From Escherichia coli (lineage in GTDB: Bacteria; Pseudomonadota; Gammaproteobacteria; Enterobacterales; Enterobacteriaceae), in NCBI RefSeq assembly GCF_002854065.1, contig NZ_CP024147.1: 64,000 bases of DNA; one strand, given 5' to 3'. Each line of letters starts with the position of its first letter. Position 1 is the stretch's first letter. The translations under genes were made by a program, and so were the position numbers. The notes beneath the pieces were generated by a model, which ran no database searches, was not told the DNA's origin, and was given only the letters and a program-made list of their open reading frames with translations. Shown one piece after another: positions 24,988-31,660 of the stretch.

Positions 24988-25380
24988 TCAGGATTGTGCG
25001 GTGTAATAGACCAAAGCCAGCTTGTTGCCATCGGGGTCTCTAACATAAGCGCTGTAGAAACCTTCGCCGTAATGCGGGCGCAGGCCAGGTGCTCCCTCGT
25101 CCGTGCCTCCTTGGTTTAAAGCGAGCGCGTGAAGCTGCTGGATATGTTCGGCAGTGCGGGCAATCAGGGCGACCATCACACCATTTCCGGTTGTGGCATC
25201 CTGTTTATCAAAAGGTATGCCGATACCCAGTGCCGTCGTGTTATTACCGTTGAAAACGCCCAGCTACGCGACGTCCTCATTCCTGCCACAATGGGTATAG
25301 CTCTGCATCTCCATGAACGGATAGTCGAATGTGAGGGCATGTGGCTGGTAGTTTGTTTTAAGCATAATGTAAGAAAACAT
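24988..25380 (-). pseudogene. VOC (glyoxalase/bleomycin-resistance) family gene remnant
   Basis: Paralogous to the intact VOC gene at 28022-28414 (same MFSY start, HIQQLHALAL and YVRDPDGNKLA motifs) but interrupted in frame. Confidence 0.5.
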
Positions 25381-25427
25381 GGGCTCTCCTTAATGGATTC
25401 AGGGGGAGTGACTATAATCAGCTCAAA

Positions 25428-25679
25428 TCACTCGTCCGCTTTATGAGCCCAGGCGGGCATTGCCGTCAGATAACGTTTTGCCCGCTTCAATGCTTCTTCC
25501 GGGCCGACTTTTTGCCAGGAATCAAGGAAGCTGGCTAAACCTGATACCGCTTCTTCCCAGGGTTTGAGATTGCCGTTGCTGTCGCTGCAGTACGCACAAT
25601 AGTGATCGCTTGCACTGTGTGCATCGGGTGCCGACATCGGCATTCCGCAAGCCTGACAGAACTGTTCATGTTGTGACAT
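25428..25679 (-). CDS. Small zinc-ribbon protein
   Basis: 83 aa with two CxxC pairs (CQAC...CAYC). Confidence 0.45.
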   Translation of the reverse strand: MSQHEQFCQACGMPMSAPDAHSASDHYCAYCSDSNGNLKPWEEAVSGLASFLDSWQKVGPEEALKRAKRYLTAMPAWAHKADE

Positions 25680-25806
25680 AAGATGCTCCTTATGGCGACG
25701 TGCTGATTAATAAACATACTGAATATGCATTGTGCAGGTGATGCATCAGATCAAAGCAAAGGCGAAGCTCCCGGTATCTCCAGTCAAAAATACCGGGAAG
25801 CTATTG

Positions 25807-26871
25807 TTACCTAGCGATGAGCGCGAACACGCCCCAGCCAAAGTATTCCCGCGCGTAAGTTACGTGGCGTTTCGGCGAGAGTGATAGCTCGGCCCTGACT
25901 TCGGCGGCGAAGCCGTCGTCAGGATTCGCTTCCAGCCAGCGGCGCATGGTCAGCCATTTCGCGGCTTCATACCGGTCCCAGCCTTCCTGGTCTGCCAGTA
26001 CCATTTCCACCACGTCGTAGCCGAGTTCATCGAACGCGTTGACAAGCCCTGGCAGCGTCAGGAAATCGGTCGTCGAGCTGACGCCGCAGGCCTGGGCAAT
26101 CTCTTCCGTCGCAGGTAGCTGACGCCAGTAGGGTTCGCCGATAAGCATGATCCCGCCCGGTTTCAGGCTTTGAGCCAGCAGCTCGATGGTCCCGGCAAAC
26201 CCACCGGCTATCCATGTCGCACCGACACAGGCAGCCACGTCGCATTTCTCTTCTGTAACATATCCGGCGGCGTCGTTATGTATGAACTGAACCCGGTTGC
26301 TGACGCCGAGCTCTTCTGCGCGGCGTCTGGCCTGCTCGCTGAACAACTGGCTCATATCGATACCGACACCGGTAATGGCGTGGTCCCGGGCCCAGGTACA
26401 GAGCATCTCGCCCGAGCCGCTGCCGAGGTCAAGAATGCGGGTATCCGGCTTCATGCGCAGCACACGGCCCAGCGTGGCGTACTTCTCTTCGGTGAACGGG
26501 TTATGAATACGGTGCTCACTTTCGCTAATTGTAAAAATACGTGGGATATCCAATGTTGAATTCCTTTTATTGCGTTGAGTATGAAGAGGAAGTTCCTCTG
26601 AGGTTTTTGCTTTTTCAGCCAGCAGAGCAAACAGCTTTCCTTCAAATGTCTCGCTGACTGGCCAGTCGTGATCCTGAGACAAATGGTTCGCCATCATGTG
26701 TTGGCTGAAGGCCGGTTCGTCCCAGGGGATTGTACTTTCCTCCGCTGACAGCTGGACGTGTCGGGATGAGGAAATAAGGGGACTGATATCCACCATGCTC
26801 TCCTTAGCGGTTATCAAGCTGAGCGCGGACGTTATGCAGCCCGGTGGTGTTGATTCGGTAGGGCTGGCCAT
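25807..26871 (-). CDS. Class I SAM-dependent methyltransferase
   Basis: Motif [12 protein letters not shown]; the start is probably an internal Met near 26796, overlapping the stop of the upstream toxin gene. Confidence 0.7.
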
Positions 26872-27061
26872 TGACGGACTTGATCAGTTTTTTGGTTTTG
26901 AGTTTTTTGAAGACGGCGAGCGTGCAGTCGGTCAGCAACAGCCCCTCGCGGCTGTAGCATTCAACGGAAGTGACGCGGCCTGAAGAATCGCGGACGTGCG
27001 CAATACGTCCACCTTTAGCGAGAACGTGTAAGGTACGTTGTTCCTGACGGGATAAATTCAT
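26804..27061 (-). CDS. topAI: YjhX/TopAI-family toxin (topoisomerase I inhibitor, UPF0386)
   Basis: 85 aa; sequence [20 protein letters not shown]...[14 protein letters not shown] matches the remembered YjhX family. Confidence 0.7.
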
Positions 27062-27400
27062 ACTGAAGAACCTGTTTAATCATCATGTGCAAAACGTGCA
27101 AACACACAGCGGTGTCCGCATTCGATTTCGGCGCATTGATAATCAGTCCGGCCTGAAAAGGTCGGTAAGCTGATTATCGGATGATTACATTCTCCAGCAT
27201 CAAAGCCTCGGGTTGAGTTGAAAGGTATTTACGGAGCGAATAGTAACACGTAGTTTTAGGAGGGATATGTTTCAGTAGAAAAAGTGTGATGTACTTTGGA
27301 AATTGAATGCCAACCCATATACTGGGAAAGGCAGATGACACTGACGAATGCATGTTGAAGTACGTCAGAAATGGCCTCATCGGCTTTTCCCCTCCGGACG

Positions 27401-29695: not shown

Positions 29696-29733
29696 AAACG
29701 GGTTCTCCGTTTTTTATCATTGAATGGTTTTAA

Positions 29734-30309
29734 TCAACTCAGATCGTGCAGTTCTTTATCCATTGCAGGAGTCAGTCTGAGATCAAGAAATTCTACCTCC
29801 AACCCCTTGCGCTGAGGTGTACAACACATGATGCCCGTTTTTACAGGGCCCGTAGGGAAATGGCATAAGCGAAGTAATGGCCAGTGCTGTCCATCTGAGG
29901 AGTACTGCAGTCGTAACGCATCTTTTTTACGGGTCAGACGCAGCCAGAATTCCTTCGGATCCCCAGGAAAGAGTCCTGTAGCCCAGTCGGAATATCCCTG
30001 CGTGAGTACACTCCCGATTGCAGGTGTGCCATCGTTGAATTCGATGCCAGCTTTGAGCCAGTGCTGTTCGTCAGAGAGAATCATAATTCCGGCCTGGTCA
30101 TAGAGTGTGGTGAAGTTTGCGCGGATCCTGACCTGAAAAGTAAAATCACCTGTTACATCAGTAGCGTAGATGTGGCCGGTAAAACGCTCAAACCCGTACC
30201 AGGTACGGCACCAGAAATCAGTATGCTCATCTGTGATTACCGACAGGGCGTTATTTTCGTAGCACCATACGGCGGGCTCATTGATCCATTCAAACCTGCA
30301 ACTCATCAT
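29734..30309 (-). CDS. DUF1349-like protein (concanavalin-like fold, function unknown)
   Basis: 191 aa; family call from remembered similarity only. Confidence 0.4.
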   Translation of the reverse strand: MMSCRFEWINEPAVWCYENNALSVITDEHTDFWCRTWYGFERFTGHIYATDVTGDFTFQVRIRANFTTLYDQAGIMILSDEQHWLKAGIEFNDGTPAIGSVLTQGYSDWATGLFPGDPKEFWLRLTRKKDALRLQYSSDGQHWPLLRLCHFPTGPVKTGIMCCTPQRKGLEVEFLDLRLTPAMDKELHDLS

Positions 30310-30346
30310 TGTTCTCCTGTCATGCGGAACGCAGCATAACGATAGT

Positions 30347-31165
30347 TTAAAATGTCAGTTCCATTTCAAACTGGCATAACGGTTCAGCCTGATAACCCGC
30401 CGCAGTAAATAATGGTGCCAGCGTTTCTGGGATCGCGGCTGATGTACCTATGCCAGGCCATCTGGCATTGATTTTCTTAAGCATTGTTTTAGCCCGTCCC
30501 TGGTAACGATACGCCGGTTCCACAAACAAACAGCGGAGCTGAGGTTGTCCCATGAACTCGGCGACAGCACACCATGCATGTTCGTTATCCCTGAGGATGT
30601 CACAGGGAATAGACAAGAGCTGCAGGGGACTGGCCAGCCAGGGAAGATCATCATCTGGTGCAGACCAGACGGTACGCAGGAAGTCATCAACAGACTTGGA
30701 TTCCATAGCCCCTGAAGATATTTCCAGATGAGACTGTGGATCTCCCCGGTATTTGCACAGATGTCGGCGAACCTGAAAACCGAGCGCGTGATAGAGAGCG
30801 ATGGCCCGGGTATTTTCGCGCATCACTTCCAGCCTCACGCTGGAAAACTTTTTCTCTTTTAAGGAGGTAAACAGAGGAGTAAGCATCTGTTTTGCCAGTC
30901 CCTGGCTCCGGTACTCGGGTAACACACCAAATGCGGCCAGACGCGCTTTGTCCATTCTGCGGGTTACGATGGCTATTGCCGCCGGGTTATCATTGACCAG
31001 CCAGACAAACGAGTCTTCAAGACTGAGTCCTTCGGAAATGAAACGTAAGGCAAACATTTCCGGTGGCAACGCAAACGGTGTCATTGATTCATTAAAGCTG
31101 TCTGCAAGAATACGGCACAGCTCAGTAATGCTGCATTCAAGGGCTGATACCGGAATAACGTTCAT
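30347..31165 (-). CDS. GNAT-family acetyltransferase (possibly tandem GNAT domains)
   Basis: 272 aa; motif RLEVMRENTRAIALYHALGFQ. Confidence 0.6.
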   Translation of the reverse strand: MNVIPVSALECSITELCRILADSFNESMTPFALPPEMFALRFISEGLSLEDSFVWLVNDNPAAIAIVTRRMDKARLAAFGVLPEYRSQGLAKQMLTPLFTSLKEKKFSSVRLEVMRENTRAIALYHALGFQVRRHLCKYRGDPQSHLEISSGAMESKSVDDFLRTVWSAPDDDLPWLASPLQLLSIPCDILRDNEHAWCAVAEFMGQPQLRCLFVEPAYRYQGRAKTMLKKINARWPGIGTSAAIPETLAPLFTAAGYQAEPLCQFEMELTF

Positions 31166-31225
31166 AGATAAAGCTCTCCATTGCGGTTACCGGGAGCTAC
31201 AGGGGAAAATATGCTCCCTGTTTTC

Positions 31226-31660
31226 TCAGACAGTGAAGCTGATTTCTACAGAGCGGGCACTGCGATCACCCTCACCATGGTAAACAGCTTCGATGTTGTT
31301 ACCGTCCGGATCCAGAACAAAAGCGGCATAGTATCCGGGATGATAGGTTCGTTCGGCAGGTGCGCCGTTATCACGTCCGCCATGATTTAGTGCTGCGTGG
31401 TAAAACGCGTTCACCGATTCACGGTCTGCGGCCTGAAAGGCCAGATGGTGCCGTCCTGTAGGCACTCCGCCAGACTCCGAACTTTTTACTGACGAAATGA
31501 CCAGTTCGTCAGCCCAGATATAATCGTCATCGGTAATAACCATGGGGATCTTAAGTTCCGCCAGAACAGCAGTGTAAAACGCTTTGCTTGCGGCAAAGTC
31601 GTTTACCACGAGCTGGATATGGTCGATAAGTCTGCCACGATGCAGCGTATAGTTATCCAT
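31226..31660 (-). CDS. VOC (glyoxalase) family protein
   Basis: 144 aa, VOC fold motifs (HIQLVVND, VLDPDGNNIE). Confidence 0.7.
   Translation of the reverse strand: MDNYTLHRGRLIDHIQLVVNDFAASKAFYTAVLAELKIPMVITDDDYIWADELVISSVKSSESGGVPTGRHHLAFQAADRESVNAFYHAALNHGGRDNGAPAERTYHPGYYAAFVLDPDGNNIEAVYHGEGDRSARSVEISFTV

Follow-up and report, generated by a model that had tools for sequence, protein, structure and literature searches.

The gene block and its two modules

The window analysed here is a stretch of 64,000 nucleotides (nt) from Escherichia coli (contig NZ_CP024147.1), and in its listing of open reading frames (ORFs), ten consecutive ORFs occupy the minus strand at 24988-31660. A sequence-only reading of this DNA had described them as a single cargo block for detoxification and antibiotic modification within a defence island, made up of three VOC proteins (one of them decayed), two GNAT acetyltransferases, an MdfA-like efflux pump, a DUF1349-like protein, a methyltransferase and a zinc-ribbon protein. 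Much of this inventory holds. All ten co-directional ORFs are where they were placed, the two GNATs, the DUF1349 protein and the zinc-ribbon protein each have Pfam matches, and two of the VOC proteins match Pfam Glyoxalase, the third being a full-length VOC sequence with one in-frame TAG. That list, however, names nine genes, and the tenth, left unnamed, encodes the TopAI/YjhX toxin preceded by the toiL leader. The toiL-topAI pair, which was thus missed, is the only experimentally characterised element of the block.

We propose, with a probability of about 0.7, that the gene run is an inherited, two-part mosaic of accessory genes that forms part of the cargo of an island integrated at leuX, and it is likely, too, that the block is neither a phage-defence system nor the carrier of any recognised resistance gene. 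Module A (24988-27877) contains GNAT168, toiL, topAI, the methyltransferase, the zinc ribbon and the VOC pseudogene, and module B (28022-31660, its start perhaps at 31989) contains VOC144, a tandem GNAT (GNAT272), DUF1349, an MdtM paralogue and VOC130. The arrangement is not a chance run of genes, because the same order recurs in E. coli, Enterobacter and metagenome contigs. Nine complete E. coli genomes have the full gene order, as do Enterobacter sp. JUb54 and six metagenome contigs (L023, L035, L084, L116, L125 and L134), and positions 24500-32000 of the window are 100% identical to the chromosome of E. coli VTB96935v, a chicken isolate. The block is a variant of the known topAI operon, joined to uncharacterised but unremarkable enzyme genes.

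Table 1. Features of the block and its surroundings in the window (numbering of the whole stretch)
Feature	Coordinates	Strand	Evidence or remark
tRNA-Leu(CAA)	8360-8444		leuX by comparison with K-12; integrase adjoining
G+C-rich stem-loop, 12 nt beyond the last stop codon	24957-24976	unassigned	Consensus terminator scan; T-run on the + strand
VOC pseudogene, VOC130 paralogue, one in-frame TAG	24988-25380	-	Translation and alignment
Zn_ribbon_2 protein, 83 amino acids (aa)	25428-25679	-	Pfam Zn_ribbon_2 7e-10
Methyltransferase ORF, 329 aa with the most likely start: MTase2 remnant (81 aa, 26554-26796) fused in frame to YjhP (25807-26553)	25807-26796	-	
topAI (YjhX family toxin, topoisomerase I inhibitor), 85 aa, intact	26804-27061	-	Pfam YjhX_toxin 6.3e-42
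topAI leader RNA	27045-27225	-	Minimum-free-energy fold
toiL, 8-codon sensory upstream ORF (uORF), MLENVIIR	27174-27200	-	Identity with K-12 toiL
GNAT168, RimJ/RimL-type acetyltransferase	27401-27877 (listed ORF to 27907)	-	Pfam Acetyltransf_3 1.6e-17
VOC130, glyoxalase-fold, 130 aa	28022-28414	-	Pfam Glyoxalase 3.4e-06
MFS antiporter, MdtM paralogue, 423 aa	28424-29695	-	Pfam MFS_1 5.8e-31
DUF1349 protein, 190 aa	29734-30306 (RefSeq start; listed ORF to 30309)	-	Pfam DUF1349 (PF07081) 3.2e-69
GNAT272, tandem-GNAT N-acetyltransferase, 272 aa	30347-31165	-	Pfam Acetyltransf_1 1.5e-16
VOC144, glyoxalase-fold, 144 aa	31226-31660	-	Pfam Glyoxalase 1.2e-12
sm49, candidate unannotated 49-aa ORF MPLNKMKRHAILYTLSIPERKLRPLKWLALISSLLVILQLAIESLVISE	31840-31989	-	GGAGG Shine-Dalgarno; hydrophobic C-terminal stretch

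The toiL-topAI sensor and its K-12 counterpart

In E. coli K-12, the leader hairpin represses the translation of topAI and permits Rho-dependent termination within the gene. Both effects are lifted when ribosomes stall in toiL under tetracycline, macrolides, pleuromutilins or other drugs (PMC12121999). The same authors speculated that topAI, yjhQ or yjhP may have a role tied to the sensed molecule. TopAI is bactericidal when overproduced, and YjhQ has been published as its antitoxin (PMC4666372).

The window carries the corresponding elements. Its toiL is that of K-12 and starts 139 nt upstream of the topAI ATG, as published (PMC12121999). The leader fold has a free energy of -55.1 kcal/mol (z = -3.7) and repeats the architecture seen in K-12 (-57.8 kcal/mol). 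The TopAI profile is matched completely (Pfam YjhX_toxin positions 1-85 of 85; NCBIfam PRK13687 156.5 bits, against a cut-off of 99), and the distal gene of the toiL-topAI-yjhQ-yjhP operon is represented by a YjhP that matches PDB 1nkv at 5.6e-155. By homology with K-12, the leader hairpin of the uninduced locus would hide the topAI ribosome-binding site and Rho would stop transcription within topAI; ribosomes stalled in toiL would open the hairpin, allowing topAI to be translated and the downstream methyltransferase to be expressed, perhaps together with the zinc-ribbon gene. By analogy, then, we infer the same toiL control and antibiotic induction of topAI in the window strain. This control would work like that of the ermC/ermB and cat/cmlA leader peptides, in which antibiotic stalling in a short uORF frees a hidden downstream ribosome-binding site (PMC12121999), but toiL controls a topoisomerase I inhibitor and one or more methyltransferases, and answers several drug classes.

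The K-12 KpLE2 segment shows the same order and orientation as the window: yjhY (a pseudogene), yjhP, yjhQ, topAI and yjhZ (a pseudogene). The toiL peptide is identical, the leader hairpin is the same, and the proteins are 94% (TopAI) and 91% (YjhP) identical, whereas the counterparts of the zinc-ribbon, GNAT and VOC neighbours are pseudogenes or fragments in K-12. For instance, GNAT168 is the intact counterpart of yjhZ, whose region matches residues 42-146 at 69% identity, the zinc-ribbon gene is the intact counterpart of yjhY (95% identity over 82 residues), and a VOC fragment of 39 N-terminal codons is found by tblastn downstream of yjhY. The window differs from K-12 in that the zinc-ribbon and GNAT168 genes are unbroken, five module B genes that K-12 lacks lie upstream, and yjhQ is missing, a deleted second methyltransferase, fused to YjhP, standing in its place. 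These comparisons make it probable that module A is the long form of the yjhZ-topAI-yjhQ-yjhP-yjhY segment, with toiL-topAI-yjhP as its core, and that the K-12 copy has decayed. The window copy itself is not whole, given that the translated VOC pseudogene stretch of 130 codons, which aligns with VOC130 from end to end, is broken by a single stop (TAG) at codon 40. RefSeq notes the same internal stop in the strain that is 100% identical over this region, and intact copies exist elsewhere (e.g., L075, L080 and L119).

The yjhQ slot and the MTase2-YjhP fusion

The 250 nt between topAI and yjhP, where the gene for the antitoxin would be expected, give no alignment with yjhQ (a GNAT of 181 aa). Instead, what the slot encodes is the N-terminal end (45 residues) of MTase2, a class I methyltransferase, at 82% identity to strain R2, joined to the last ~36 residues of the same protein. 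The missing 216 codons correspond to an in-frame deletion between two CACGACTGG repeats, through which the MTase2 catalytic core has been lost in the window and YjhP is still in frame. The methyltransferase ORF most likely starts at the ATG at 26796, behind the predicted Shine-Dalgarno sequence TAAGGAGAG; the listed ORF covers 25807-26871, and RefSeq starts yjhP at a TTG at 26553. The methyltransferase named in the sequence-only reading is of class I, and it is better described as a deletion derivative of a double methyltransferase.

The undeleted MTase2-YjhP is a single ORF of 543-546 aa in 11 loci, namely in XJ23PTE1, FDAARGOS_1373 and nine metagenome contigs (L005 3730-5371 and L006 3795-5436; metagenome L023, L035, L116, L125, L026, L052, L114, L119 and L034). 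MTase2 (296 aa) and YjhP (248 aa) are encoded by separate genes in two other cases, contig L033 and a plasmid of Salmonella Rubislaw (L013). In some strains, RefSeq splits the fused ORF into an "incomplete" methyltransferase and yjhP, and we read this split of a 545-aa double methyltransferase as an annotation artefact.

GNAT168 was considered as a substitute antitoxin and rejected, as it has no sequence similarity to YjhQ. Because the slot is not yjhQ and GNAT168 is unrelated to YjhQ, the window represents a natural strain with intact topAI and sensor that lacks the published antitoxin gene. Related situations occur in A41 (L002 9182-9729) and SE11 (L003 2400-2947), in which yjhQ is annotated as frameshifted and topAI is intact.

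Among 5,426 complete E. coli genomes, topAI with its leader occurs in 1,772 and yjhQ in 1,656, whereas MTase2 occurs in 7 and module B in 9. A scan of metagenomes with the toiL sequence, whose pattern demands near-exact toiL and whose sample is taxonomically unbalanced, returned at least 120 contigs, and among the matches listed, to which all the following counts of toiL loci refer, 79 carry complete topAI and yjhP. In 42 of these 79, topAI and yjhP are adjacent and the slot is empty; 16 have topAI-MTase2-yjhP, 11 topAI-yjhQ-yjhP and 6 topAI-yjhQ-MTase2-yjhP, so that yjhQ is present in 17 of 79. The remaining 4 have an unassigned gap of more than 150 nt between topAI and yjhP, and one of them, L134, is of the window's own type, with block genes that are 98-100% identical at the protein level. 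De-replication at 97% identity reduced the 72 loci with a near-complete yjhP to 46 clusters, of which 22 have topAI-yjhP, 13 an MTase2 slot, 9 a yjhQ slot and 2 both yjhQ and MTase2. Thus, YjhP and not YjhQ is the constant partner of TopAI across the toiL loci, and YjhQ occurs in about a quarter of the sampled diversity.

Module B: a putative operon of enzymes and a pump

The genes of module B follow one another at gaps of 60, 37, 38 and 9 nt (VOC144, GNAT272, DUF1349, MFS and VOC130), and from this tight spacing, the only basis for the transcription units, we infer a putative operon. Its products would export and/or N-acetylate some small molecule. The pump does belong to the MFS efflux family, as had been noted, but MdtM is a nearer relative than MdfA: its identity with K-12 MdtM is 59%, and it matches the NCBIfam MdtM model over its full length at 586 bits (4.3e-176), compared with 328.5 bits for MdfA. 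Given this identity and a score below the MdtM equivalog cut-off, the pump appears to be a second, island-borne paralogue of MdtM. With the MdtM (YjiO)/MdfA family of DHA1 MFS multidrug:proton antiporters it shares full-length homology, antiport being predicted only; it differs in being a second copy carried by an island, in a putative operon with GNAT, DUF1349 and VOC genes.

GNAT272 has two GNAT domains in one chain, as judged from an AlphaFold2 model (pLDDT 82.5, pTM 0.71). A Foldseek search with this model found tandem GNATs (3ddd, VipF, CBG, GlmA, Eis2 and MshD) at E values of about 1e-11 and identities of 8-16%, and the TM-scores against MshD, Eis/Eis2, GlmA, VipF and the clavulanate protein CBG are 0.5-0.68. 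As in those proteins, both halves of GNAT272 appear to have an R/Q-x-x-G-x-A type motif in an alignment read by eye; unlike most tandem GNATs, it is short (272 aa), and the match points to no substrate. The family is small and confined to a few Enterobacterales, with 12 clusters among 5.8 billion proteins (Klebsiella, Serratia, Entomohabitans and metagenome sequences), and a scan of genome contigs with strict GNAT272 peptide patterns returned one locus.

The other members are better known as families than as functions. The DUF1349 protein scores 232.6 bits against a Pfam cut-off of 32.4 and matches PDB 3mep (ECA2234) at 3.7e-70 as well as yeast YJL217W, both functionally unassigned; its gene is common in Enterobacterales and Aeromonas, where it lies in several different neighbourhoods of chromosome-sized records. 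The nearest solved structure to VOC144 is 4z04, which has no assigned function, and the family comprises at least 8,000 matching proteins, alphaproteobacterial members still being 70-75% identical. VOC130, which starts 9 nt after the MFS stop, matches PDB 4qb5, likewise of no assigned function, and has an 82% identical orthologue in the K. oxytoca chromosome. Because their families are large, conserved and widespread, VOC144 and DUF1349 look more like genes for general housekeeping or stress than like genes specific to antibiotics, and the possibility that the homologues are core metabolic genes, which the sequence-only reading had itself named as fatal to its proposal, is to that extent partly approached. 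Literature searches returned no functional information on DUF1349, DUF1062, yjhZ or yjhY.

Upstream of VOC144 lies sm49, a candidate for the first gene of module B that may encode a small membrane protein. It is intact in 5 of 5 other loci scanned and 86% identical in Klebsiella quasivariicola, where it also precedes VOC144. Its membership of the module is uncertain because its distant homologues are not linked to VOC144: among 1.84 billion representatives there are five homologue clusters, two of which have the same length at 54-55% identity and lie in unrelated contexts. The ratio of nonsynonymous to synonymous divergence (dN/dS) is uninformative for sm49, as there are too few changes.

Resistance and defence families

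For every resistance family in NCBIfam, the block proteins fall short of the curated cut-off. With VOC144, the Fos families (cut-offs 240-280) give about 20-22 bits and Pfam Ble-like_N (cut-off 24.5) gives 20.1 bits; VOC130 and the VOC pseudogene have no match to FosA-type or bleomycin-binding families. For GNAT272, the scores are 19.6 bits for AAC(6') (cut-offs 140-270) and 20-22 bits for ArsN (cut-offs 125-170), and its likeness to Eis2 is at the level of the fold only, at 10-12% identity. In NCBIfam, GNAT168 comes closest to RimJ, with 24 bits where the cut-off is 190. The pump, too, stays below all three cut-offs concerned: 586 of 700 bits for MdtM, 328.5 of 439 for MdfA and 282.3 of 725 for CraA.

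With respect to defence, PADLOC-DB 2.0 gave no match for eight of the nine block proteins scanned, and the methyltransferase matched only the methyltransferase domain of mad2, which is generic. Given that there is no other match and that the toiL-topAI-yjhP core occurs in 24 unrelated upstream contexts, a role in phage defence is unlikely.

Selection, recurrence and decay

In pairwise locus comparisons, dN/dS is below 1 for every intact gene of the block. In module B, it is 0-0.31 for VOC144, 0.32-0.60 for GNAT272, 0.16-0.30 for DUF1349, 0.13-0.27 for the MFS gene and 0.09-0.20 for VOC130; in module A, it is 0.05-0.19 for GNAT168, 0.04-0.26 for topAI, 0.07-0.13 for yjhP and 0.03-0.16 for the zinc ribbon. 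Thus, topAI is under strongly purifying selection. Synonymous divergence (dS) differs several-fold between genes of the same locus pair; between the window and XJ23PTE1, for example, it is 0.05 for VOC144, 0.16 for the MFS gene, 0.33 for VOC130 and 0.53 for yjhP. The block is therefore recombinationally mosaic, and VOC130, whose dS is far above that of its neighbours, has a separate history. The intergenic region of ~970 nt between VOC144 and DUF1062, which is ~96% identical across loci, was considered as a constrained regulatory element and rejected, since the dS of the neighbouring genes is 0.03-0.1 and recent shared ancestry gives as much conservation.

Several shortened or expanded versions of the block exist. 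In strain R2, only the C-terminal end of the MFS gene remains. In Enterobacter ludwigii, the order is DUF1349, a VOC130 remnant, toiL, topAI and yjhP, and the N-terminal remnant (…AIRFYDPLM…; L014 5574-5700) lies between DUF1349 and toiL, so the compact DUF1349-toiL-topAI-yjhP order arose by deletion from the long block. For the same reason, the DUF1349-toiL adjacency of this species was rejected as an independent case of linkage. In SE11 (L003 3543-9595), a six-gene cluster for sugar-phosphate catabolism (a PTS IIC subunit, a 2-hydroxyacid dehydrogenase, an SDR, an FGGY kinase, a GlpP-like antiterminator and a class I aldolase) takes the place of GNAT168 between VOC130 and toiL. ORFs of matching size follow VOC130 in Enterobacter sp. 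JUb54 (L008 13533-14890), which suggests that the insertion is shared. Taken together, the R2, E. ludwigii, SE11 and Enterobacter versions show common descent and not independent association.

More independent evidence for the grouping is provided by Klebsiella, Entomohabitans and a Salmonella plasmid. In K. quasivariicola, the 49-aa ORF, VOC144 and GNAT272 are found downstream of genes with tryptophan-synthase-type domains, and the corresponding site in K. oxytoca holds a VOC gene, an MFS gene, a dienelactone hydrolase (DLH), DUF1349, VOC130 (82% identical) and DUF1062. The Entomohabitans locus has a tandem GNAT gene (38% identity) and an MdtM-like MFS gene (45% identity) in convergent orientation, and on the Salmonella plasmid a dienelactone hydrolase comes after topAI-MTase2-yjhP. 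No plasmid with module B was found in our plasmid search, which returned only module A fragments or VOC144 by itself, some of the "plasmid" matches being megabase-sized records.

In three metagenome contigs (L063, L075 and L122), a second zinc-ribbon gene, an MFS-like ORF of ~495 aa and an ORF that by eye resembles pentapeptide repeats were seen upstream of toiL.

Possible roles of the block

Several observations weigh against the reading of the gene run as an inherited, two-part block. Of the 80 toiL loci with enough upstream sequence, 48 have the toiL-topAI-yjhP core but none of the block genes, in 24 upstream contexts, so the linkage of the core with the block genes is not obligatory, and several arrangements that seemed independent derive by deletion from one ancestral block and thus are not independent evidence of linkage. 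The block is also eroding, as seen from the VOC pseudogene, the deleted MTase2, the frameshifted yjhQ of A41 and SE11 and the remnants in K-12, R2 and E. ludwigii, and this erosion fits dispensable cargo as well as a working unit. In addition, VOC144 and DUF1349 are common conserved genes, our scans found no convincing promoter or terminator signals (their counts equalled those of shuffled sequence), and an Rfam search of 24000-34000 gave no match at E values up to 1. The stem-loop beyond the last stop codon (Table 1) may nevertheless mark the end of block transcription.

The interpretation given in the sequence-only reading is, accordingly, only partly supported. Its family assignments and the island location hold, but a single block for detoxification and antibiotic modification is not supported in that form: no resistance cut-off is passed, two of the families are common, the two modules differ in distribution and divergence, and the block is eroding in most lineages. 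Family membership and gene neighbourhood make a role in small-molecule handling or stress plausible, and a link to translation inhibitors is attractive by analogy with the published response of toiL to antibiotics. Nevertheless, the tie of the block to antibiotics is indirect and literature-based, and it runs through sensing and not through demonstrated resistance.

One alternative, which we consider doubtful, is that the block is a cryptic inducible resistance cassette resembling the erm/cat leader-peptide operons. In such a cassette, toiL would sense one natural translation inhibitor, the GNATs, methyltransferase and VOC proteins would modify or sequester the compound or modify its target, and the pump would export it. 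The response of toiL to several classes of ribosome-targeting antibiotics and the authors' speculation on a sensed molecule (PMC12121999) point in this direction, as does the composition of the loci, in which a methyltransferase almost always follows topAI, a GNAT or second methyltransferase does so variably, a dienelactone hydrolase follows in the Salmonella plasmid, and efflux, GNAT and VOC genes lie beside toiL in 32 of 80 cases. However, no gene reaches any curated resistance cut-off, 60% of the toiL loci lack all upstream block genes, one candidate modifying enzyme is deleted and one VOC is a pseudogene in the window, and a term search of PMC12121999 and PMC4666372 gave no resistance phenotype for topAI-yjhQP.

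An equally tentative proposal is that the long block represents an antibiotic-responsive accessory locus in its native and complete state, K-12 having retained a stump of it; toiL would sense a natural translation inhibitor, and the surrounding methyltransferase(s), GNATs, VOC proteins and pump would act on or export that molecule. If this were true, YjhP and not YjhQ would be the constant functional partner of TopAI, and TopAI-YjhQ would not be a classical toxin-antitoxin pair.

Slightly less likely still is that the genes are functionally unrelated junk, brought together in a variable slot of the island as segments were inserted and deleted one after another, passively carried and now being lost. 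The dS mosaic between genes would be explained in this way, as would the sugar-catabolism cluster inserted mid-block in SE11 and Enterobacter, the many pseudogenes and deletions and the rarity of the complete block, which was found at a coverage of at least 80% in only 6 of the 5,426 E. coli genomes. What such an origin does not predict is a dN/dS of 0.03-0.6 for every intact gene, the operon-like spacing of module B or the joint presence of the same families, at 38-82% identity, in Klebsiella and Entomohabitans chromosomes. Finally, abortive-infection defence, with TopAI as a toxin effector released when a phage disturbs translation and the neighbouring enzymes as modulators, is highly improbable: the block does sit between pAgo/restriction-modification and Gabija genes, TopAI is bactericidal on overproduction (PMC4666372) and the E. 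ludwigii core adjoins SymE, HNH and Mrr genes, but PADLOC matches neither TopAI nor the other block proteins beyond a generic methyltransferase domain, the core occurs in 24 unrelated upstream contexts among the 48 loci without block genes, the documented response of the sensor is to antibiotics, with none to phage (PMC12121999), and the strain lineage persists although the supposed antitoxin is absent from the window.

The block has consequences for work on topAI. The K-12 locus would be a decayed piece of a longer block still intact in a few strains of E. coli, Enterobacter and Klebsiella, where acetyltransferases, VOC proteins and an MdtM-like pump surround toiL-topAI; this neighbourhood offers testable hypotheses for the genes under toiL control. 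A variable "antitoxin" slot, a constant YjhP and a natural yjhQ-negative strain make the physiological role of the operon more tractable. For surveillance, the present evidence does not justify counting any block gene as a resistance determinant.

Island setting and neighbouring genes

The packaging of the block inside a defence island, as first described, is borne out by PADLOC matches in the flanking genes, by a type I restriction-modification system and by the tRNA-Leu(CAA) gene. In RefSeq, the block is preceded by the integrase, the type I restriction-modification genes, an AAA ATPase with its partner, and a PD-(D/E)XK nuclease with Argonaute; it is followed by DUF1062, an AlpA-like helix-turn-helix protein, YagK/YfjJ and a helicase with an ATP-dependent nuclease. 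Further on come the backbone genes for a GTPase family protein, DUF932, an antirestriction protein, RadC and YeeU/CbtA, and then a restriction endonuclease. PADLOC identified among the flanking genes a PtuA-like ATPase and partner, pAgo_II with the Aga helical restriction endonuclease, GajA/GajB and PDC-S02. We take the island to be of the CP4-57/KpLE2 type of Enterobacteriaceae, that is, integrated at a tRNA gene and with variable cargo slots between conserved backbone genes. With such islands, the window shares the integrase next to tRNA-Leu(CAA), the AlpA/YfjJ/GTPase/DUF932/antirestriction/RadC/YeeU-CbtA backbone and defence genes in variable slots, a likeness of genomic context and not of functional family. 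In the E. coli copies compared, which occupy several chromosomal sites, the DUF1062-AlpA-YfjJ side of the backbone always adjoins the block.

The DUF1062 gene (32630-33238, plus strand) encodes an N-terminal CxxC...CxxC motif and is divergent from the block across the gap of ~970 nt (31661-32629). Wherever an island copy has the block or its remnants, this gene is there as well, and a 42% identical DUF1062 lies near VOC130 in the K. oxytoca chromosome. Given this constant company, the DUF1062 protein may be a regulator.

Directly after the type I restriction-modification genes, at 16775-19647 on the plus strand, lie the PtuA-like AAA ATPase (5e-44) and its partner, which has weak PtuB and PDC-M62B matches. 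The pair, labelled only "AAA family ATPase" and "hypothetical protein" in RefSeq, is probably a Septu-like system.

The class II Argonaute gene is split into two fragments (20836-21315 and 22334-24403) by an insertion element at 21182-~22512, presumably a copy of IS2 with a length of 1331 bp, one end of which reads TAGACTGGCCCCCTGAATCTCCAGACA. A 301-aa IS3-family transposase ORF lies inside it at 21595-22500. The Aga helical restriction endonuclease partner (19676-20848) is intact. As a result of the insertion, the window Argonaute matches PADLOC pAgo_II over profile positions 2-612 of 724 only, whereas the pAgo of VTB96935v is an uninterrupted protein of 743 aa, and the pAgo defence system is therefore probably inactivated in the window.

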